NCBI GenBank assembly: GCA_016205975.1
Contig: JACQSK010000015.1
Location: forward strand, 10,624 to 74,623
Direction: 5' to 3'
DNA length: 64,000 nt
Origin: Candidatus Uhrbacteria bacterium
GTDB taxonomy: Bacteria > Patescibacteriota > Patescibacteriia > UBA9934 > GWF2-40-263
This document shows, piece after piece, positions 5,664-17,051 of the stretch; the first letter of the stretch is position 1; each line of letters opens with the position of its first letter. Below the pieces are notes generated by a model, which was not told the DNA's origin, ran no database searches, and was given only the letters and a program-made list of their open reading frames with translations. A program made the position numbers and the translations under genes.

Positions 5664-7979
5664 ATGCCCTACAACCATCAAGAGATTGAAAAGAAATGGC
5701 AGGATCGCTGGGAAGCGAGCGGGATTTTTCATGCGCATGACGGAGGCGAGAAACAGAAGTTTTACTGTTTGATCGAGTTTCCCTATCCGTCTGGTGCCGG
5801 CCTGCACATCGGGCATCCGCGCAGTTACACGGCGCTCGATGTCGTTGCGCGCAAGAGGCGTCATCAGGGGTATAACGTCTTGTACCCGATCGGTTGGGAT
5901 GCGTTTGGACTCCCGACCGAAAATTACGCGATCAAGCACAAACGCAAGCCGCAGGAGGTGACGCTCGAGAACGTCGCAACGTTCAGGCGCCAGCTCCAGT
6001 CGCTCGGGTTTTCTTTTGACTGGTCACGCGAAGTGAACACGACGGATCCCAGCTATTACAAGTGGACGCAGTGGATGTTCCTTCAGTTTTTCAAGGCCGG
6101 ACTTGCGTACAAGTCCAAACAGCCGATCAACTGGTGCCTGTCGTGCAAGATCGGACTCGCGAACGAGGAAGTCGTAAACGGGAAGTGCGAGCGCTGCGGG
6201 GGAGAGACGGAGAAGCGCGACAAGGAGCAGTGGATGATCGCGATTACGAAGTATGCGGAGCGACTCCTTGAAGATCTCGACGGGGTTGACTATCTCGAGA
6301 AGATCAAAACGCAGCAGCGCAACTGGATTGGAAAGAGCGAAGGCGCGGAGATTGATTTTGTGCTCAATGTCCCAGGGCAAGAATCAGGCAAACAGAAGGT
6401 GACCGTCTTTACCACGCGCGCGGACACTATTTTTGGCGCGACGTTCTTGGTGATCTCGCCGGAGGTCGCCAAGCAGTGGATCGATGTCGGTTGGGTGGCG
6501 CCAGCGTCCGTGCGTGAGTATGTGCAGGAGGCGCTCTCTCGCGCCGAGATGGAACGTGCAGCCGAAGGCAAAGAGAAGACAGGCGTGGACACTCAAATCG
6601 TCGCGATCCATCCTGCCAACGGAAAAGCAATCCCCGTGTGGGTCGCCGATTACGTCTTAGGGAGTTACGGGACAGGGGCGATCATGGCTGTCCCTCAGCA
6701 CGACGAGCGTGACCGAGCGTTTGCCGAGCAGTTCCGTTTACCGATCGCGGACGAGCCGCTTGCGGCTGTTGATGAAGTCGTGGAGAAAGTCGGTGGAAAA
6801 AAAACCGTGAAGTACAAACTCCGCGACTGGGTGTTTTCGCGACAGCGCTACTGGGGTGAACCGATCCCGCTTGTGTGGTGTGAGAAACATCAGTGGGTCG
6901 CGGTACCCGATGAGCAACTTCCTGTTGTCCTGCCAGAGGTCGAGAAGTACGAACCGACCGATACGGGAGAGTCACCGCTTGCCGCGATGACCGACTGGGT
7001 CAACACGACCTGTCCGACGTGTGGCGGGCCAGCCCGTCGAGAGACGGACACGATGCCTAACTGGGCTGGTTCGAGTTGGTACTTTTTGCGCTACATCGAT
7101 GCACACAACGATCAGGCGTTCGCGTCGCGGGACAAGCTCAAGTATTGGATGCCGGTGGATCTCTACAACGGCGGCAATGAGCACACGACACTTCACCTGC
7201 TGTACTCCCGATTCTGGAACAAGTTTTTATTCGACCAAGGCCACGTCCCAACCAGTGAGCCGTATGCGCGCCGCCACAGCCACGGACTCGTGCTTGCAAG
7301 CGACGGGATCAAGATGAGCAAGTCCAAAGGAAACGGTGTGGATCCAGATGAGATCATCACCCAGTATGGCGCCGACGCCCTGCGCATGTATATCCTTTTC
7401 ATGGGTCCGTTTGAGGAGCCGGTGCCGTGGAGTTTGAACGGGCTTATCGGCGTGCGCCGATTTTTGGATAAGGTTGAGCGGTATGTACAAGCATGGGTCC
7501 CATCGGACCATGATGGCCTATCTGGCGCAGGTCTCTTAGAGCGCAGTCTTAAGAAAATCTCCGACGACATCGAAAGTTTTAAGTTCAACACAGCCGTGTC
7601 CGCCTTCATGTCGCTCTTCAATGCGATCGCCGTGAGTCACATCACGCGCGAGCAGCTCAAAAAGATTCTCGTCGTGCTTGGACCGTTCGCTCCGCACCTC
7701 GCCAACGAGTGCTGGGAGAAAATAGGCGAGGGCGGACTCGTCGAGGAACAGGCCTGGCCAGAGTTCGACGCGCGCCTTTTGGTTCAAGACGAAATCGAAA
7801 TAGCGGTGCAGGTGAACGGCAAAGCGCGCGCAACGATTCAAATCTCACCCAACGCTGACGAAGCCGCGGCCAAACAACTCGCGCTCGCACAAGAGAAAGT
7901 CCAGAAGCACCTGGAAGGCAGGGAGATCGTGCAGATCATCTACGTGCCAGGTCGGATTTTGAACATCGTCATCAAGTGA
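5664..7979 (+). CDS. leuS: Leucyl-tRNA synthetase (compact, 771 aa)
   Basis: HIGH-type motif (HIGHPRSY) and KMSKS motif. Overall class I LeuRS architecture. Confidence 0.92.
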   Translation: MPYNHQEIEKKWQDRWEASGIFHAHDGGEKQKFYCLIEFPYPSGAGLHIGHPRSYTALDVVARKRRHQGYNVLYPIGWDAFGLPTENYAIKHKRKPQEVTLENVATFRRQLQSLGFSFDWSREVNTTDPSYYKWTQWMFLQFFKAGLAYKSKQPINWCLSCKIGLANEEVVNGKCERCGGETEKRDKEQWMIAITKYAERLLEDLDGVDYLEKIKTQQRNWIGKSEGAEIDFVLNVPGQESGKQKVTVFTTRADTIFGATFLVISPEVAKQWIDVGWVAPASVREYVQEALSRAEMERAAEGKEKTGVDTQIVAIHPANGKAIPVWVADYVLGSYGTGAIMAVPQHDERDRAFAEQFRLPIADEPLAAVDEVVEKVGGKKTVKYKLRDWVFSRQRYWGEPIPLVWCEKHQWVAVPDEQLPVVLPEVEKYEPTDTGESPLAAMTDWVNTTCPTCGGPARRETDTMPNWAGSSWYFLRYIDAHNDQAFASRDKLKYWMPVDLYNGGNEHTTLHLLYSRFWNKFLFDQGHVPTSEPYARRHSHGLVLASDGIKMSKSKGNGVDPDEIITQYGADALRMYILFMGPFEEPVPWSLNGLIGVRRFLDKVERYVQAWVPSDHDGLSGAGLLERSLKKISDDIESFKFNTAVSAFMSLFNAIAVSHITREQLKKILVVLGPFAPHLANECWEKIGEGGLVEEQAWPEFDARLLVQDEIEIAVQVNGKARATIQISPNADEAAAKQLALAQEKVQKHLEGREIVQIIYVPGRILNIVIK

Positions 7980-9855: not shown

Positions 9856-9931
9856 GGGCTCGTGGAGGTAATGGTAACCTCACCTGCTTTGACAACAGAA
9901 GTTGCCGGTTCGAATCCGGTCGGGTCCACCA
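9856..9931 (+). tRNA. tRNA-like gene with encoded CCA; canonical acceptor, D and T arms but a weak anticodon stem (nominal anticodon loop UUUGACA)
   Basis: Acceptor GGGCTCG/CGGGTCC (two G.U pairs), D stem GAGG/CCTC, T arm GCCGG-TTCGAAT-CCGGT, then discriminator A + CCA. The anticodon stem has C.A mismatches at both ends, so identity is unresolved. Confidence 0.5.
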
Positions 9932-10032: not shown

Positions 10033-11361
10033 ATGAATCTCGTCATGATAGGAACCGGCTATGTGGGGCTTACCACCGGCGTTGGGTTTGCCACGCTTGG
10101 GCACCAGGTGGCCTGCGTGGATATTGATGCGGGGAAAGTCGCGCGGCTGGATCGCGGGGAGGTCCCCTTTTATGAGCCGGGCCTTCAGGAGGCTCTGAAA
10201 CACGTCCAGGAAAAAGGACGCATCTTATTTACGTCTGATTTGAAAAGCGTCATCGGCGGCGCCGAGGTCGTGATGATCGCGGTGGGCACGCCGCCCAAGA
10301 GTTCGGGCGAGGCGGATTTGACCGCGCTATTTGCCGTGGCAGACCAGATCGGGAGCGTGTTGGATCATGAGGCCGTCATCGCGACCAAGAGCACCGTGCC
10401 CGTGGGCACCAACCGGATCGTCCTTGCGCGTGTGCGCGAAGCGATGCGCGCGGCCGGACGCGAGGAGCTTACGAGTCTTATCAACATCGTGTCCATTCCC
10501 GAGTTCCTGCGCGAGGGCTCGGCGTTTGAAGATTTTCTGCAGCCGGACCGCCTGGTGATCGGCTCGGACGATCGCGTCGCGGCACAGATCACCGAGCGCT
10601 TGCATCGTGACATCATCGCGCCCAGGGTGATGACCTCGCTTGAATCTGCGGAGCTCATCAAGTACGCGGCCAACGCGTTTCTCGCCACCAAGATTTCCTT
10701 CATCAATGAAATCGCCAACCTCGCCGACCGCGTGGGCGCGGATGTGCGCCACGTCGCCGAGGGTCTCGGGCATGACCACCGCATCGGTCCGCATTTTTTG
10801 AAAGCGGGCGTGGGATACGGCGGGTCGTGTTTTCCCAAAGACGTTTCCGCGCTCGAGCAAATCTCCGGCGCTCATGGGTATGCCTTCAAGCTGCTCTCCG
10901 CAGTGATCGAAGTGAATAATCGCCAGCGCGAGATGTTTTTTAAGCGCCTGGTGGAAGAGCTTGGTGGCGTGAGAGGGCGGCGCGTGGCCGTATGGGGGTT
11001 GGCCTTCAAAGCGCAGACGGACGATATTCGCGAGTCGGCGGGAATTGAGATCGCCCAGCGGCTGCACGCCACGGGAGCGGAGCTGTGCGTCTATGACCCG
11101 CAAGCGATGAACAACGCGCGCGCGGTCCTGTCGCCGCACGTTGAGTTCGCGCCCACGGCCATGGACGCCGCAGAGGGCGCGGACGCGCTGGTGGTCCTCA
11201 CCGAGTGGCCGGAGTTCCGCGAAGTGTCTTTTTCCACGCTGCACGACCGCATGCTCGAACCCAGGATTTTTGACGGCCGCAACCATCTTGCGGACCTGCA
11301 TCTGGAGAACCAAGGATTTATCTATCGCGGCGTGGGCTTGGGGAGCTATGCGTCTGCATGA
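10033..11361 (+). CDS. ugd: UDP-glucose 6-dehydrogenase
   Basis: N-terminal GTGYVGL Rossmann motif and GGSCFPKD catalytic-Cys motif. Confidence 0.9.
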   Translation: MNLVMIGTGYVGLTTGVGFATLGHQVACVDIDAGKVARLDRGEVPFYEPGLQEALKHVQEKGRILFTSDLKSVIGGAEVVMIAVGTPPKSSGEADLTALFAVADQIGSVLDHEAVIATKSTVPVGTNRIVLARVREAMRAAGREELTSLINIVSIPEFLREGSAFEDFLQPDRLVIGSDDRVAAQITERLHRDIIAPRVMTSLESAELIKYAANAFLATKISFINEIANLADRVGADVRHVAEGLGHDHRIGPHFLKAGVGYGGSCFPKDVSALEQISGAHGYAFKLLSAVIEVNNRQREMFFKRLVEELGGVRGRRVAVWGLAFKAQTDDIRESAGIEIAQRLHATGAELCVYDPQAMNNARAVLSPHVEFAPTAMDAAEGADALVVLTEWPEFREVSFSTLHDRMLEPRIFDGRNHLADLHLENQGFIYRGVGLGSYASA

Positions 11362-12820
11362 GGTGCTCAGCTCTCCCTCTAAGACACTCGCCATTTCGTT
11401 GGCGGTGTTTTGTTTTGGCATCCTGCTCGCCCGCGCGGTTCCCGTCTCCTGGTGGCAGGCGTTCTTTCTCTTGGCGGTTGTGCTGTGTGCGCTGTGTCTG
11501 ATCGTGAGACGCCGCGAGCTCCGGTTCCTCTTCGCGCTCGCCGCGATTTTTTTCTTCGCCCTGTTCCGCTTCACCTCCGCCATGACACCGTCCATGGTCC
11601 TCTCGCTCGCCGATGTCCCGAGCGCAGCCGCACGCGTGGAAGGCGTTGTCGCGGGACAGGTCGAGCGACGCGCGAACACGACTCGGGTCGTGCTCGAACA
11701 AGTCGTGGTCGGTCGTGATGCGCGTGCGGGCAAACTGCTCGTGTGGGCGCCGCTGTATCCGGAGATTCCTTTTGGCGCGCGCCTGGTGTTCAACTGCCGC
11801 ATCGCTCCGCCCGAGCCGATCGAAGGATTTGCCTATGACCGGTATCTGGAGAGCCAAGGGATTTTGGCCGTGTGTCTGCGGCCCGAGTATATCGACGTGA
11901 TCCCCTCGGAGTCGTTTTCTGTCGTGGGCGCGCTGCTCATGGTGAGAGACGCTGCCGTGCATCGCCTAGAACAGTCGGTGCCCGAACCGCACGCTTCGTT
12001 TCTGACGGGTCTCTTGTTGGGAGGGAGCTCGTCGCTCTCGCGTGAGCTGAAAGACGACTTTGCCGCGACGGGGACCTCGCACATCCTCGCCGCGTCCGGG
12101 TTCAACGTCTCTCTGTTCTCGCTCACGTTCCTTTCGTGGATCCTCACCACCCGCATCGGCCGCCGGCGCGGACTGCTCTTGGCGACCTTTCTGATCGTGA
12201 GCTATGTCCTCATGGCCGGGGCGACGCCCGCGGTGGTGCGTGCCGGGATCATGGGCGGCGTGGTGATCGTGTCCAAGTGGATTTCGCGCAAAGCGTACCT
12301 CGTGAACGTCTTGCTCGCGACCGCGAGCGTGATGCTCCTCATAGACCCGCTCGTCCTGAGCGACGTCGGGTTCCAGCTTTCGTTTGCGGCGACCGCGGGG
12401 ATCATCGCCCTGACCGACCGCGTGAGCGAGCGCCTCTCGTTTATTCCAGACCTGTTCGCGCTACGCACATCCTTTGCCGCGTCGCTGTGTGCCATCCTCG
12501 TTACGCTTCCAATCGTGCTCTGGCAGTTCGGCACCGTATCCTTGGTGGCACCATTCGTGAATCTCCTCGTCCTTCCGCTGGTTCCCTATGCAATGTGGCT
12601 GACCCTGCTCGCACTGGGAGCTGTGACTGTTTTTGGAACGCTAGTTCAGGCTGTGTTCATCCCTGCATGGGCCCTGTCCTCCTTCATGCTCTTTGTCATC
12701 TCCGCCTTCGGCGCGCTTCCGTTTGCCCTTGTGGAACCTGCCTATGCACAGATCCTCGCGGCTTTCGTGGCCGCGGTGCTCGTCGCATTTTTTCTCCGTC
12801 ATCGCTATGCCTCGCGTTAA
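11348..12820 (+). CDS. comEC: ComEC/Rec2 competence channel, membrane (DUF4131 + competence) part
   Basis: Polytopic membrane protein with the GLLLGG...ELKDDFAATGTSHILAASGFNVSL competence-domain signature. Start moved to ATG 11348; the track ORF from 11141 overlaps ugd. Confidence 0.8.
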   Translation: MRLHEVLSSPSKTLAISLAVFCFGILLARAVPVSWWQAFFLLAVVLCALCLIVRRRELRFLFALAAIFFFALFRFTSAMTPSMVLSLADVPSAAARVEGVVAGQVERRANTTRVVLEQVVVGRDARAGKLLVWAPLYPEIPFGARLVFNCRIAPPEPIEGFAYDRYLESQGILAVCLRPEYIDVIPSESFSVVGALLMVRDAAVHRLEQSVPEPHASFLTGLLLGGSSSLSRELKDDFAATGTSHILAASGFNVSLFSLTFLSWILTTRIGRRRGLLLATFLIVSYVLMAGATPAVVRAGIMGGVVIVSKWISRKAYLVNVLLATASVMLLIDPLVLSDVGFQLSFAATAGIIALTDRVSERLSFIPDLFALRTSFAASLCAILVTLPIVLWQFGTVSLVAPFVNLLVLPLVPYAMWLTLLALGAVTVFGTLVQAVFIPAWALSSFMLFVISAFGALPFALVEPAYAQILAAFVAAVLVAFFLRHRYASR

Positions 12821-13712
12821 GCCGCATCACCCCCTCATCGACGCGCGCAGCGTGCACGGCGTGCTGCTCGTCAGCGCCACGCTGTTGTTTTCTTTTGGCC
12901 TCTGGATCGTGCACAGCGCGCAGCCGTTTCCCTGGCAAGAGTGGCCGCTCAAAGTTTGGATGTTGGACGTGGGCCAAGGCGATGCGCTCTTCATCGAGTT
13001 TCCCACGGGCGAGCAGATGCTCGTGGACGGCGGACCCGACAACGCCGTGCTCGAGCGCCTCGGAAGCGTGCTTGCGCCCTGGGATCGCACGCTCAACGCC
13101 GTCGTCCTCACGCACCCGGATGCCGATCATGTGACGGGCATCATCGCCGTTCTCGACCGCTACCGTGTGGGCACGGTTTACGAGAGTGGCGTGGGGGCGC
13201 ACACGCCGTTTGGGGCTGCGTACGAGGCGCGCAAAGAAGGCGCGGGGAGGCTCGAGCAGATCGCCTTGGGCGACGTCATTGCGGTGGGCGAGGTGACACT
13301 CACGGTGTTGTGGCCGGAGGAAACGCAGGAGGGGCGCTACCCGGAAACGCGCAATAACCTCTCGGTGAACTTCCTGCTCGAGTACGGCGACACGTCCATG
13401 CTCTTCACAGGCGACGCCGAGCAGGACGTCGAGGCTTTCGTGGCTCCGCGCGCAAAGGACATCGACGTCTTGAAGGTCGGCCATCACGGCAGTCTCACCT
13501 CTACAAGCTGGAAGCTCCTCGAACTCACGCAGCCGGAGATCGCGCTCATCTCGGCGGGGAAGGATAATGCCTATGGCCATCCTCATCCCGTCGTGCTTGA
13601 TCGCCTTGAGAGGTTCGGCGCGCAGATTTTCCGAACGGACATGGACGGCGACATCTTGCTGACATCCTTTGGCGGCGAGCCCAGCGTTGACGCTCGCACC
13701 TTGCCGTTCTAG
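12807..13712 (+). CDS. comEC: ComEC C-terminal metallo-beta-lactamase domain, encoded as a separate overlapping ORF
   Basis: THPDADHVTG (HxHxDH) MBL motif and LKVGHHGS. ATG at 12807 overlaps the upstream stop (12818-12820) by 14 nt in another frame. Confidence 0.75.
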   Translation: MPRVKPHHPLIDARSVHGVLLVSATLLFSFGLWIVHSAQPFPWQEWPLKVWMLDVGQGDALFIEFPTGEQMLVDGGPDNAVLERLGSVLAPWDRTLNAVVLTHPDADHVTGIIAVLDRYRVGTVYESGVGAHTPFGAAYEARKEGAGRLEQIALGDVIAVGEVTLTVLWPEETQEGRYPETRNNLSVNFLLEYGDTSMLFTGDAEQDVEAFVAPRAKDIDVLKVGHHGSLTSTSWKLLELTQPEIALISAGKDNAYGHPHPVVLDRLERFGAQIFRTDMDGDILLTSFGGEPSVDARTLPF

Positions 13713-13744: not shown

Positions 13745-14212
13745 ATGCCAGACAAACAACAGACACTCGTCTTACTCAAACCCGATGCGCTCCAGCGCGA
13801 TCTCTTGGGTGAGATTATTCGCCGCTTTGAAATGAAGGGACTCAAAATCGTTGGTCTCAAGTTCGTGCGTCTGACTGAGGCACTCCTGGAGGAGCATTAT
13901 GCACACCTTGCCGACAAGCCGTTTTTTGCGAGCTTGAAACAGTTCATGATGCAGACGCCCGTGGTGGGCCTTGTCTTGGAAGGTTATGACGCGGTTGCCG
14001 AAATCCGTAAAGTCGTCGGCTCAACAAACCCCCGCGCGGCCGACGCCGGTACGATCCGCGCGGACTTCTCCATGAACATGCCTTCCAACCTGATTCACGC
14101 ATCCGACTCTCCCGAGTCGGCCGAGACGGAGATCAAACGATTCTTCAAGGACGACGAGCTCTTTTCCTACGAGAAAATCACGGATCGCTATATTTTTGGA
14201 GAAGGCGTCTAA
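13745..14212 (+). CDS. ndk: Nucleoside diphosphate kinase
   Basis: NLIHASDSPESAE active-site His region and typical Ndk length. Confidence 0.9.
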   Translation: MPDKQQTLVLLKPDALQRDLLGEIIRRFEMKGLKIVGLKFVRLTEALLEEHYAHLADKPFFASLKQFMMQTPVVGLVLEGYDAVAEIRKVVGSTNPRAADAGTIRADFSMNMPSNLIHASDSPESAETEIKRFFKDDELFSYEKITDRYIFGEGV

Positions 14213-14235
14213 CTGTGTAAAACTTCTGGATGAAC

Positions 14236-14590
14236 GAGGGATAACGTACCCTTGCGCGGCTTGCGGCATTTTGAGAGCATGGTACATTTAGATTGCCTTA
14301 CGGTCAGATGGGTGTGTCCCATGAACAAACCTTACCCACGGTCCGGGAATGCCAAGCTTCGGCAGGGCAATAGGACCTTACGGTTTGAACCCACTGTTGA
14401 CGTCGACATGGTGGATACGACAAGCTGCCATCATCGCGCAACAACAGGACTGATACGGAACCCGAGGAAACGGCTAAGAGGGTTATCCGTCGCAACCGCA
14501 CTCTGCACCAACCTTATCTGGGCCACCCATTTTTCCGTAGGGCGCCAAAAATGAAACCACTCTTCGAACCATTCGGAGAGTGGTTTTGTG
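14236..14590 (+). ncRNA. Candidate structured ncRNA with faint RNase P RNA-like motifs, ending in a strong intrinsic terminator; identity unproven
   Basis: No credible ORF. GGUCCGGG (14345) and ACGGAACCCG...GGCUAAG (14455) resemble P4 strands. GGGATAAC (14238) can pair with GTTATCC (14482). A 15-bp hairpin plus U-run sits at 14554-14590. Confidence 0.25.
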
Positions 14591-14635
14591 TGAGGCGTCT
14601 TTTCAATCGCTCTCATTTCAGGCAATCTGTGACGT

Positions 14636-14669
14636 AATGAGCCATCAATTCCAATGAGCCATCGATTCA
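14636..14669 (+). repeat. Tandem 17-nt direct repeat (AATGAGCCATCRATTCM x2) inside the non-coding stretch
   Basis: Seen directly in the sequence. Confidence 0.6.
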
Positions 14670-15053
14670 AAGGACCTTTCAAAGACTAGCCATAGCTTCA
14701 GCGATGGCTGGCAGGGGCGTTCCTGAGGTGAGCGCGTACTTCGTCTCTCGGGTAGACCCAAAGGCCTCATCCTAGACTGCGCCAACGCTTTCCGTCATCC
14801 TAACGACGAGTCCTCGAAAAGTAAGGATCCCATTTCCGAGCGTGCGATCCACAACGCGATCCCTCACTCCCTACGAGATAACGGACAATGAACCATAGCC
14901 CACCATGTCTCCTATGCGCCCCTTTCTTGAAAACCCATTCACCCCAGAACCCAAGACCCCACGCCGCATCGGTACCCTGGCCGCGTGCGGCGGGCGAACG
15001 CATCGACCTCGGCCGCGCATGGGGCTTGTTCTCAATTAAAACAGTTCACCACG

Positions 15054-15077
15054 AAAGGCTGATACAGCCTTTTTTCT
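15054..15077 (+). terminator. Intrinsic terminator closing the 14.2-15.1 kb non-coding stretch
   Basis: Stem AAGGCTG / CAGCCTT with loop ATA, followed by TTTTTT. Confidence 0.55.
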
Positions 15078-15125
15078 TATCGCAAAAAACCGCCCACGGG
15101 ATGTGAGCGGTCGAAGGTGACTACG

Positions 15126-17051
15126 CTATGACCGCATCCACGACCGGTCTTGCACGACCGGCAGTTGCAAGGCGCGTTCGCGGTCCAGGTCGAGGCTGCC
15201 CAGGTGGGCGCACAGCGGCGTCTGCACCCACTTGAAAATGGAGTTCAGGAACAGCCGTGCGAAGCGGTCGACCCACTCGGGGATCCGGGGTTCATCGCTC
15301 CACATCTGTTGGAGCACGACCTTGACCTCCTCGATGGTCATTTTCTCGCCCACGAACAGGGCGAAGCAGGCATCGAGGATCGGGAAGGGCATGAGGTCGT
15401 TTTCATCCGACTGGCCGTCCTGCAGTTCGGCCGATGCCGTGCTCGTGTCCAGAACCGAGAGGATCCACAGGCCTGTCTTCTCATACCACCAGCGGAGGAA
15501 TTCGATCACGACCGTCTTGGGCAGGTTCGCGATGAGACCGTAGGCACCCATCATGTCCCCGCCGATGGTCGTATAGCCGACAGCCTTCTCGCTCATATTG
15601 GACGTCTGCAGCCACAGACCCTGGCACTCGTTGGCTAGGTTCCACATCCGCTCGCCGCGCACGCGCGCTTGGATGTTCTGTTCCACCTGGGGGCTGAGCG
15701 TTTGTGTGTTGAGAGTCGCCATGAGGGCTGCGCGTTCTTGCTGCACGGCTTCGTGGATGGGGGAGACGAGGAGCGTTACGCCCAGGTCGTCGCAGACCCG
15801 GCGCGAGATTGAGCGTGTTTCCTGCGAGTTGTGGACGCTTGGCATGTCCACGCACCAAATCATCTCGCGCAGGAATGCAGAGCGCTCTTCACCCACAAGT
15901 CCGCGCCGCGCCGCCTCTTGCTCTACGGCTCGATGGACAAGCAGGAGCGTCAGGCAGGAATCCTTCCCGCCCGAGAGGGCGATGAGGAACCGCTTGAACG
16001 CGCCGGACTTTTCAAAGTAGTCCCAGGCGGCTAGGGGGATGACGAGAGCGAGGTCCTCGAAGTAGCGATCGCGCGCGCTTGTGGGCTTCTCTGATTCCGG
16101 AAGGAAGAAGCTCTTGTGTGCGGGGGCGGGGTAGGGGAGACTCGAGTCGGGAACGGCCACGGCCTTGAGGGCGTCATCGGTGATGAGAGCGGTGCGCTTG
16201 TGGAGCGCCAAGTATTGCTGGGCGCTGCGCCGCCAGGTTGTGTTCTCGTTTCTCATGCGTCGTACGCGGTCGAGGTCGACCACGCACGCTTCCCAGCCCA
16301 CGCGGCCGCGCGTGGCGTCCATGCACAGTCGGCCGCACTGGTTCACACAGCCGCCGCCGTCGAAGACGAGGCTGTCCTGCGCGCCCACGAGGTTGGCGTA
16401 GACGACCGTCGCACAGTTGTCGCTGGCGCGCGTGGCGATCATCTCGCGGCGCGTGTTCGTGATGCCGATATGAAACGGCGAGGCACTGATGTTGACGACG
16501 ACCTCCGCGCCGGAAAACGCGCGACGCACCATAGGGCCATCTGGGCGCCAGAGGTCTTCGCAGACTTCCAGCGCGAGCTTGCCAAACCCCAGCTCGAAGA
16601 TCATGTCGCCGATAGGGATCGCGCCTACGCTTTCACGCATACCGATCGAGCCGGACGTGACCGTGCGTCCTTCGTAGAAGACGTTGTAGTCGGGGAGGTT
16701 CTCCTTGGGGACCAGTCCTACCACGCGTCCGTCAGCCAAGAGCGCGGCGACGTTGTAGAGATGGCCGTCCAGGGGAACCGTGAGGCCGACCACTACGGCC
16801 ATGTCTTTCGTAACACTCTCTCCCAGCGTGCGGGCAAGCCGCTCGAGCTCGACGCCTTGCTGGTCAACGAAGCTCGACCACTGCACAAGGTCCTCGCAGG
16901 GATATCCTGAAACCGACAGCTCGCCGAAGGCCGCAATCTGACAGCCCGTTTGGGCCATATCGTGTGCCTGTCCGAGGATGGCGTCGACGTTCTTCCTGAA
17001 CGCGCCGACCGTTGGGTTCACGTTGCCGATGCCGATTTGGACGAGGCGCAT
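15126..17051 (-). CDS. nadE: Glutamine-dependent NAD+ synthetase (CN-hydrolase domain + NAD-synthase domain)
   Basis: N-terminal nitrilase-type domain and the SGGKDS PP-loop of NAD synthetase. Confidence 0.9.
   Translation of the reverse strand: MRLVQIGIGNVNPTVGAFRKNVDAILGQAHDMAQTGCQIAAFGELSVSGYPCEDLVQWSSFVDQQGVELERLARTLGESVTKDMAVVVGLTVPLDGHLYNVAALLADGRVVGLVPKENLPDYNVFYEGRTVTSGSIGMRESVGAIPIGDMIFELGFGKLALEVCEDLWRPDGPMVRRAFSGAEVVVNISASPFHIGITNTRREMIATRASDNCATVVYANLVGAQDSLVFDGGGCVNQCGRLCMDATRGRVGWEACVVDLDRVRRMRNENTTWRRSAQQYLALHKRTALITDDALKAVAVPDSSLPYPAPAHKSFFLPESEKPTSARDRYFEDLALVIPLAAWDYFEKSGAFKRFLIALSGGKDSCLTLLLVHRAVEQEAARRGLVGEERSAFLREMIWCVDMPSVHNSQETRSISRRVCDDLGVTLLVSPIHEAVQQERAALMATLNTQTLSPQVEQNIQARVRGERMWNLANECQGLWLQTSNMSEKAVGYTTIGGDMMGAYGLIANLPKTVVIEFLRWWYEKTGLWILSVLDTSTASAELQDGQSDENDLMPFPILDACFALFVGEKMTIEEVKVVLQQMWSDEPRIPEWVDRFARLFLNSIFKWVQTPLCAHLGSLDLDRERALQLPVVQDRSWMRS

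Follow-up and report, generated by a model that had tools for sequence, protein, structure and literature searches.

A structured RNA gene downstream of ndk in Uhrbacteria and its possible likeness to 6S RNA

The interval between the genes ndk and nadE in a 64-kb stretch of DNA from Candidatus Uhrbacteria (hereafter, the window), a lineage of the candidate phyla radiation (CPR; Patescibacteria), almost certainly harbors an independent gene for a Uhrbacteria-specific structured RNA of 258 nucleotides (nt). Within the region studied (positions 14213–15125), this gene occupies the first ~0.4 kb (segment 1, 14214–14592) and is followed by a second noncoding stretch (segment 2, 14601–15077). Segment 1 is well supported as a new RNA family, exhibiting strong covariation, an invariant promoter of its own, and no corresponding family in Rfam. 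By structural analogy, the RNA may represent an expanded relative of the 6S and Ms1 RNAs, which would mimic an open promoter and bind RNA polymerase while carrying an additional conserved module; we favor this reading tentatively, at somewhat less than an even chance.

The comparison set comprised 80 loci gathered through Ndk (1.77 Mb of related loci, labeled L001 and so on). BLAST and nhmmer revealed that the first ~350 nt of the gap are conserved in 15 Uhrbacteria loci, in which the homologous RNA always lies on the ndk strand, 0 to 6 kb downstream of ndk. It directly follows the ndk stop codon in the window, in L005, and in L008, and elsewhere one to five genes are interposed. Which gene lies downstream of the RNA varies by locus, nadE being found in the window and in L001 and murA or others elsewhere, and this gene is often encoded on the opposite strand. 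By means of nhmmer and cmsearch, the latter with a covariance model of the Uhrbacteria RNA (R1), homologues were retrieved from 20 other loci with scores of 76–254 bits, as compared with at most 23 bits on the reverse strand, and the comparison alignment holds 21 sequences. A pattern scan of metagenomes returned 120 matching stretches, among which nhmmer recognized eight more homologous loci, two of which duplicated others; most of the pattern matches were a false-positive sequence common in human gut assemblies. R1 detected no further members in other CPR loci, and a generic scan for promoter, closing stem, and terminator was too noisy in the AT-rich loci.

An earlier, sequence-only reading of the window had described this interval as a gene-free gap with a G+C content below that of its neighbors, containing two segments that end in terminators and at least the first of which might encode a structured noncoding RNA. 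The descriptive part of this reading was borne out. The G+C content is 0.50–0.54 in the gap versus 0.60–0.66 in the flanking genes, both segments end on the + strand in a hairpin followed by a U- or T-run (the first of these hairpins having the 15 bp proposed), and the gap is devoid of gene calls in three independent assemblies that are 100% identical over positions 14213–15125. Six small open reading frames (ORFs) lie inside the gap, of which four had no Pfam match and the other two had only chance-level matches (E of 0.05–0.08, under the curated cut-offs). A protein-coding nature of segment 1 was ruled out by its longest stop-free frame, which shifts between homologues, and by the indels, nearly all of which are not multiples of three. 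The strand of the RNA could be assigned as + because one G–U pair is invariant in 21/21 sequences and the neighboring pair is either U–G or U–A. Rfam 15 returned no family for the whole window at the gathering score, for 1151 nt and 316 nt at E ≤ 10, for three homologous loci at E ≤ 5, or for twelve homologous loci at the gathering score.

The comparative alignment, which the sequence-only reading had named as a check on its structured RNA, gave a clear answer. In the R1 alignment, 93.3% of the cells form a standard pair, as opposed to 33–52% when the partners are slid by one to three columns, and 25 pairs have changed on both sides versus 12.1 ± 1.8 in shuffles; none of 500 shuffles equaled the observed value on any of five covariation measures. 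The comparative structure has an energy of −83 to −86 kcal/mol, against −92 for the minimum-energy fold. The ends of the RNA are joined by a closing stem of consecutive helices (P1a, P1b, P2, and P3; helices 1 and 2 of the model), which is 96–99% paired with nine pairs changed on both sides. Beyond a central bubble, the apical domain contains two three-way junctions and the hairpins P4, P5, and P6, the last two enclosed by P7 (coordinates in table 1). P4 (helices 3 and 4) is 100% and 91% paired with eight pairs changed on both sides, and is missing from the compact variants L010 and L032. P5 (helix 6) is 93% paired, with six pairs changed on both sides, and most invariant columns of the RNA fall within its core CGACAUGGUGG...CUGCCAUCAUCG; nine P5 columns are invariant in 21/21 sequences. 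This regular helix has a loop of variable length, deleted in five homologues, and is the one internal element recognizably kept in L010, L011, and L032, an altered form being present in L035. The compact variant L010 (~124 nt) retains the closing stem and P5. The length of P6 is variable; L030 lacks this hairpin, and L026 and L032 have a reduced form.

Support for these helices differs in kind, since P1 to P5 are backed by column statistics and P7, the lower stem of P5, and P6 by constrained folds of most homologues. P7 appears in the constrained minimum-energy folds of most homologues; its pairing of just 74% in the model alignment is due to a shift of two subgroups by one column, made by MAFFT and the model alike. 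The same misregistration affects P6, for which reason P7, the lower P5 stem, and P6 are regarded as tentative and P7 and P6 were taken from individual folds. The closing stem is followed by a tail of the form R-C-N-A, in which the middle base is C in 13 of the 21 aligned sequences; L010 and L011 also have ACCA, the broader CPR group described below has AAC, AAG, or similar, and in L035 an extra nucleotide shifts the register. Three G-rich strands of the transcript resemble one another, namely GAUGGGUG in P2 (14306–14313), AUGGUGG in P5 (14408–14414), and GAGUGG in the terminator (14578–14583), and so do their C-rich partners CACCCAUU (14524–14531), CUGCCAU (14425–14431), and CCACUC (14557–14562). 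P5 retains two conserved wobble pairs. Alternative pairings among the P2, P5, and terminator helices are conceivable, and the RNA might act as a conformational switch.

The gene has its own putative sigma70-type promoter with an extended −10 element. All 15 aligned homologues keep the TTG of the −35 element and, within the −10, the T, the A, and the last T; these positions are also retained in the divergent L010, L011, and L035. In the 64-kb window, CTTG-N16-TGNTANNNT has a single match, where 0.19 would be expected. Judging from the promoter geometry, transcription probably starts at about G14295, the first base of the helix that joins the ends of the RNA. At the other end, a hairpin with a U-run occupies the terminator position in most homologues, often with the stem CCACYC/GRGUGG, and a short A-rich tail separates it from the closing helix.

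Upstream of the promoter, segment 1 opens with an array of phased direct repeats, of which only the first is intact in the window, the second showing two mismatches and the third showing three. The arrays of L008, L011, and L029 are better conserved. The homologues carry two to four of these boxes at fixed offsets of −93/−81/−69/−58 from the first nucleotide of the RNA. Across 23 upstream regions we counted 35 box matches with at most one mismatch, compared with 2.7 ± 1.6 in shuffles and two on the opposite strand. Furthermore, 15 of the 19 close box pairs found in the 1.77 Mb sit upstream of this RNA family (12 loci of the Uhrbacteria type, L035, L061, and the L010 variant). The L063 RNA is preceded by three boxes that were read by eye and fall short of the one-mismatch limit. 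The relaxed DnaA box is TTWTNCACA, with a degenerate fifth position and TGTGNAWAA as its complement, and the DnaA-site arrays of E. coli oriC are phased at 11 bp. The likeness of the boxes in consensus and phasing is a lead toward DnaA as their putative binder. OmpR/PhoB-type response regulators likewise bind phased direct repeats and are an alternative candidate. A replication origin at this locus was considered and rejected, given that the GC skew is positive over all 64 kb, the flanking genes are not divergent, and dnaA is not among the eleven neighboring ORFs inspected with Pfam. Box-like repeats were also seen downstream of ndk in a Falkowbacteria locus (L043:1300–1640), together with a consensus promoter (TTGACA, 17 nt, TGTTAATAT), after which follows an apparent 27-codon hydrophobic ORF with a terminator and no rod-shaped RNA.

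The unusual feature of the fold is the central bubble, formed by two strands (J5 and J3) lying between the closing stem and the apical domain. Among 20 sequences, J5 measures 17–20 nt with 7% G and J3 16–21 nt with 9% G, compared with 29% G in the rest of the RNA, and the sequences of both strands vary among homologues while their lengths stay conserved. The energy of a J5–J3 duplex is 0 to −3.6 kcal/mol in 19 of the 20 sequences. The bubble is permanently open because its strands are poor in G and unable to pair with each other. Linkers in ordinary multi-helix junctions are short; the long, length-conserved, G-depleted, and nonpairing strands observed here therefore point to selection for an open bubble. 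J5 begins with UGAAC, the fifth position of which is always a pyrimidine and is C in 14 of the 20 sequences.

This geometry resembles that of 6S RNA, a rod-shaped molecule in which a closing stem and an apical stem, each interrupted by small loops, flank a central bubble without structure (PMC8876501). In common with 6S RNA (SsrS; RF00013, Bacillus subtilis 6S-1 type), the Uhrbacteria RNA has an interrupted closing stem of its ends (~22 bp from P1a to P3), a large open bubble that cannot pair, as seen across the 20 sequences, and a stand-alone gene with a strong sigma70-type promoter. The 5' strand of its bubble starts with GAAC, and the template of 6S-1 also carries GAAC, because the 6S-1 product RNA is GUUCGGUCAAAACU (PMC8876501). 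A second precedent is Ms1, a 6S-like RNA of Actinobacteria, where 6S itself is undetected; it is predicted to form a long hairpin with a central bubble, it binds RNA polymerase, and its homologues were followed by gene synteny and not by sequence (PMC4191392, PMC9130861). The Uhrbacteria RNA is thus similar to Ms1 in its 6S-like form, central bubble, and traceability by synteny. It differs in that no sequence relationship between the two is known; the partner of Ms1 is the core enzyme.

A second group of ten RNAs, in Nomurabacteria and other CPR lineages, came to light when the upstream boxes were scanned for and the sequences behind ndk were then inspected. These RNAs are 117–155 nt long and are likewise located downstream of ndk, with one gene between in L053. 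All ten have a closing stem of 20–25 bp, an open bubble, and a GGG/CCC internal stem; a promoter with a consensus-like −10 precedes every one of them, and an A-rich tail and a terminator come at the end. The motif CCCAC is invariant in the nine aligned members, the 5' strand of the bubble starts with CUAGAAC or CUAGAUC in seven of the ten, and compensatory changes were found in 11 of 18 predicted pairs. As in 6S RNA, the apical side is a single stem, and a hairpin is present on the 3' strand of the bubble in nine of the ten, the first of the two L061 copies being without it. These smaller RNAs have the standard small 6S shape and lack P5. They matched nothing in Rfam, including 6S at E ≤ 1 or E ≤ 10, and our literature search found no paper on 6S RNA in CPR. 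The two groups agree in gene layout, in lying downstream of ndk, in the two-part closing stem, and in the GAAC at the bubble start, and the phased boxes of the Uhrbacteria gene recur upstream of the genes in L061, L063, and the divergent L035. Considering synteny, shared boxes, and gene layout, the Uhrbacteria RNA and the smaller CPR RNAs are probably orthologous.

On the 6S/Ms1-like interpretation, the RNA of the window would be the form taken in Uhrbacteria by a 6S-like RNA that several CPR lineages encode downstream of ndk, and would bind RNA polymerase by mimicking an open promoter. By analogy with 6S-1, a product RNA with the predicted sequence 5'-GUUCAUGGGACACA would be templated from C14326 and read into P3 and P2, and its synthesis would unzip the closing stem and free the enzyme. 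P5 could then be a lineage-specific addition serving either as a protein contact or as a competitor helix for the freed 3' strand of P2, the latter being conceivable because AUGGUGG in P5 resembles AUGGGUG in P2.

A number of observations count against this interpretation. The apical side of the RNA is branched (P4 plus P7/P5/P6) rather than a single stem-loop, its 258 nt exceed the about 150–200 nt of a typical 6S RNA, and the Rfam 6S models (RF00013 and relatives) gave no hit for the window RNA at E ≤ 10. Its strongest sequence conservation sits in helix P5; 6S RNAs keep shape more than sequence. The phased DnaA-box-like sites upstream are a further difference from 6S. Two variants also depart from the scheme, L010 having an asymmetric loop (3 × 14 nt) and no symmetric bubble, and L032 having no P4. 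The Uhrbacteria type and the smaller CPR group were not connected by nhmmer or by the covariance model, and the related loci were gathered through ndk, so that linkage to ndk is the sole context sampled.

Several of these features would suit a new trans-acting structural RNA unrelated to the polymerase, that is, a subunit or scaffold of an unknown ribonucleoprotein in which P5 is the functional site and the junction strands are flexible linkers. We regard this alternative, the main one, as possible, if doubtful. It would account for P5 as the best-conserved element, kept even in L010, L011, and L032, for two three-way junctions and a conserved P4 internal loop unlike known 6S RNAs, and for the lack of an Rfam family. 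In most Uhrbacteria sequences the closing helix is followed by R-CCA, and the one tRNA gene of the window encodes its CCA end, so that the tail might be acceptor-like. However, flexible linkers would hardly be expected to be ~19 nt long on both sides, conserved in length, depleted in G, and unable to pair, and the RNAs that occupy this position in other CPR lineages show the simple 6S shape and have no P5. The CCA tail, moreover, is not conserved outside Uhrbacteria and is displaced by the extra nucleotide in L035, for which reasons an acceptor-like tail was dropped as an explanation.

A cis-acting element, either a riboswitch or leader of the downstream gene or a structured 3' untranslated region of ndk, is very unlikely. 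The RNA does follow the ndk stop codon directly in the window, L005, and L008, with no ndk terminator between, and a terminator closes it, as in leaders that attenuate transcription. Against this, the promoter of the RNA is its own and invariant, and the RNA lies one to five genes away from ndk at other loci. Since the downstream gene is variable and often on the opposite strand, the RNA is not a leader or riboswitch, and in the window it is followed by 480 nt of noncoding DNA.

The sequence-only reading had put forward a tentative assignment of segment 1 to RNase P RNA, an identity that we now consider highly improbable even for a much diverged form. The motifs on which it relied (GGUCCGGG, ACGGAACCCG...GGCUAAG, and GGGAUAAC/GUUAUCC) are indeed present; the pairings proposed for them find no support across the homologues. 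Of the supposed strands of the RNase P helix P4, GGUCC pairs locally with GGACC, with compensatory changes, in the hairpin that we named P4, and ACGGAACCC is the 5' strand of the dispensable P6. As for the supposed closing helix, GGGAUAAC (14238–14245) lies ~50 nt upstream of the start, inside the box array, and its partner does not covary. An Rfam comparison with RNaseP_bact_a/b, tmRNA, 6S, and SRP, suggested along with that assignment, yielded no match in the window or the homologues. For RNase P in particular (RF00010/RF00011), no hit was obtained at the gathering score (window and 12 homologous loci), at E ≤ 10 (1151 and 316 nt), or at E ≤ 5 (three loci), the search at E ≤ 10 on 316 nt reaching down to roughly 12 bits, with lower scores outside its range. 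RNase P RNAs of CPR bacteria can escape Rfam, and for 10 of 35 complete genomes the score threshold had to be set as low as 5 bits (Lui et al., PMC8172020). Because such RNAs can drop below the Rfam cut-offs, the RNase P architecture was checked directly. The CR-I string GAGGAAAGUCC was found in none of the 21 sequences at up to two substitutions, and the CR-V string ACAGAANNCGGCUUA in only one (L032), at a nonhomologous position and by chance. The comparative fold lacks the P4 pseudoknot topology with nested P2/P3, because the 3'-end strands pair one after another with those of the 5' end (P1a, P1b, P2, and P3). Type A RNase P RNA (RF00010) and the Uhrbacteria RNA are thus alike in size range, paired ends, several hairpins, and short P4-like strings, the latter being engaged in local hairpins, and unlike in that the Uhrbacteria RNA has no P4 pseudoknot, no CR-I to CR-V, and no Rfam hit. 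By contrast, the diverged RNase P forms of CPR retained many conserved RNase P features (Lui et al., PMC8172020). The same-position relatives in other CPR, in addition, are rods of 117–155 nt. With this false lead removed, the locus at 14213–15125 should not be annotated as rnpB.

We give next to no credence to a variant of transfer-messenger RNA (tmRNA) or of the signal recognition particle (SRP; 4.5S) RNA. These classes share with the Uhrbacteria RNA a terminal helix followed by a purine and CC(A), as found in most Uhrbacteria sequences and corresponding to their NCC(A)-like tails, as well as a stable RNA gene with promoter and terminator. The P5 loop also holds GGAUUCGAC, which is present in the tmRNA consensus, and L010, a 124-nt hairpin, is near the size of 4.5S RNA. 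Yet ARAGORN found no tmRNA in the window, there is no RF00023 or Rfam SRP hit, and neither a tag reading frame, a T-arm motif conserved across the family, nor the GGGGNNGA 5' end of tmRNA is present; the SRP domain-IV motif GGAAGCAGC is absent at up to one substitution, and the P5 loop is deleted in five homologues. The L061 locus carries a canonical tmRNA, cut by the end of the locus (L061:6654–6836; RF00023, 31 bits, E = 1e-8), 5.5 kb from its ndk-downstream RNAs, and this match shows that a standard tmRNA exists in the lineage of L061, a CPR genome labeled Saccharibacteria. A 5S rRNA identity was considered, as the closing helix UGCCU.../...AGGCA is similar to helix I of E. coli 5S rRNA, and was rejected, no 5S model having appeared in the Rfam scans and the loop C and loop E motifs being absent on reading. 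A T-box, or another form of tRNA-end binding by UGGUGG in P5, was rejected as well, as there is no conserved downstream gene and the strand is paired in all homologues.

Segment 2 is probably a strain-specific, nonfunctional spacer. The sequence-only reading was accurate about its 17-nt tandem repeat (located by TRF at 14636–14668 with 1.9 copies, 93% matches, and a score of 59), and its suggestion of a second small RNA found no support. Neither blastn nor tblastx detected a homologue in the 1.77 Mb of related loci, the window contains the segment only once, it shows no promoter-like site, and its fold has a z-score of −1.95, with 6 of 100 shuffles as good. Segment 2 is absent from the closest relative, L001, in which nadE begins ~70 nt after the RNA terminator. 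The comparison with L001 suggests either inserted DNA or what is left of a lost gene, at a site beyond the RNA gene that is variable. A 3'-end remnant of ndk was considered, on the basis of 79% identity between 14863–14881 and 14159–14177, and was discarded, as tblastx gave no support. That segment 2 is a second functional small RNA or a small-protein gene appears improbable, despite its good + strand intrinsic terminator (15053–15073), its ORFs of 44–72 codons, and its identity in three assemblies: these ORFs have no significant Pfam match, and the homologue, promoter, and fold searches spoke against it, as did its absence from L001. The identity among assemblies excludes an assembly artefact and, because the three assemblies come from one sample series, is uninformative on selection. 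The sequencing runs SRR12113390, SRR12113401, and SRR12113431 contain this strain.

The affiliation of the window with Candidatus Uhrbacteria is borne out by the relatives of its Ndk protein. In the wider region, the gene order is comEC, ndk, the gap, nadE (minus strand), two unknown ORFs, and murA. The gap is flanked by ndk at 13745–14212 (Pfam NDK, E = 2e-51) and by nadE at 15126–17051 (Pfam NAD_synthase and CN_hydrolase). The boxes, promoter, RNA, and terminator are framed as a unit by the two copies of an imperfect 17-nt direct repeat (14194–14210, TTTTGGAGAAGGCGTCT; 14584–14600, TTTTGTGTGAGGCGTCT; 76% identity), which may be due to chance or be a trace of module insertion. The gene comEC (11141–13712) is split into overlapping ORFs in different frames, one with the Competence and DUF4131 domains (11141–12820) and the other with a metallo-beta-lactamase domain (12693–13712); this is probably no sequencing error, because gene callers split it alike in independent assemblies (L201 and L202). 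The tRNA gene, located at 9856–9931 (76 nt, CCA end encoded), was called tRNA-Ser(UGA) by ARAGORN, an isotype that may be wrong because the gene has no long variable arm and, on reading, a weak anticodon stem.

Table 1. Coordinates of features in and around the gap between ndk and nadE and of related elements at other loci (positions refer to the window unless preceded by a locus label).
Feature	Position	Strand	Description
Box array	14214-14244	+	three direct 9-mers phased at 11-12 bp, resembling the complement of the DnaA box (TGTGNAWAA)
Box 1	14214-14222	+	TGTGTAAAA
Box 2	14225-14233	+	TCTGGATGA
Box 3	14236-14244	+	GAGGGATAA
Putative sigma70-type promoter	14261-14288	+	
-35 element	14261-14266	+	TTGCGG, 16-nt spacer to the extended -10
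Extended -10 element	14280-14281, 14283-14288	+	TG and TACATT (TGnTAnnnT)
Structured RNA body	14294-14551	+	258 nt, from homologues and covariation
Closing stem, 5' strand	14294-14321	+	P1a 14294-14298, P1b 14301-14303, P2 14306-14314, P3 14316 and 14318-14321
J5, 5' strand of bubble	14322-14339	+	UGAACAAACCUUACCCAC, unpaired
P4 hairpin	14340-14377	+	outer stem GGUCC/GGACC, conserved internal loop GGGAAU/AAUA, inner stem, UUCG loop
P7 (tentative)	14381-14498	+	14381-14385 CGGUU with 14494-14498 AACCG, encloses P5 and P6
P5 long hairpin	14392-14448	+	core CGACAUGGUGG-AUACGACAAG-CUGCCAUCAUCG, best-conserved part of the RNA
P6 variable hairpin (tentative)	14455-14490	+	ACGGAACCC...GGGUUAUCCGU, from individual folds
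J3, 3' strand of bubble	14499-14518	+	CACUCUGCACCAACCUUAUC, unpaired
Closing stem, 3' strand	14519-14544	+	pairs with 14294-14321, ~22 bp, two small internal loops
Tail	14544-14551	+	G-CCA-AAAA, follows the 3' strand of the closing stem (together 14519-14551)
Intrinsic terminator	14554-14592	+	15-bp hairpin (14554-14586), then UUUUGUGUG
Segment 2, probable spacer	14601-15077	+	17-nt tandem repeat 14636-14668, C-rich and G-poor 3' half, terminator 15053-15073 and T-run
Direct repeat flanking segment 2	14606-14610, 15079-15083		ATCGC, 5 bp
nadE terminator	15084-15110	-	hairpin and T-run, read off the sequence
Box arrays at other loci	L008:6493-6523, L011:8903-8934, L029:11436-11456, L061:849-880, L063:~5697-5730, L035:1501-1521		
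Smaller CPR RNA	L047:4602-4757		
Smaller CPR RNA	L051:6485-6620		
Smaller CPR RNA	L057:853-1006		
Smaller CPR RNA	L056:6542-6695		
Smaller CPR RNA	L053:7244-7399		
Smaller CPR RNA	L062:1114-1248		
Smaller CPR RNA	L045:6238-6368		
Smaller CPR RNAs	L061:974-1090, L061:1155-1283		tandem copies
Smaller CPR RNA	L063:~5801-5925		

The CPR/Patescibacteria comprise a large share of bacterial diversity and have tiny genomes; to our knowledge, almost no regulatory RNAs have been characterized in them. If the RNAs described here are the 6S equivalents of these bacteria, a stable RNA missing from CPR annotation would be added, and a way would be opened to study how transcription is controlled with growth phase in organisms that do not grow in culture on their own. 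Known 6S RNAs offer no parallel to the DnaA-box-like upstream sites or to the conserved P5 module. A more far-reaching proposal, which we hold to be unlikely as it stands, would join these features: CPR may possess an uncatalogued 6S-like family downstream of ndk, part of it transcribed from promoters with a phased array of DnaA-box-like sites in front, which would tie it to the replication initiator, and the Uhrbacteria would have added a 150-nt branched module, containing the near-invariant hairpin P5, that confers a second partner or activity. Should this be true, the Uhrbacteria RNA would represent a new class of composite regulatory RNA, beyond a long form of 6S.

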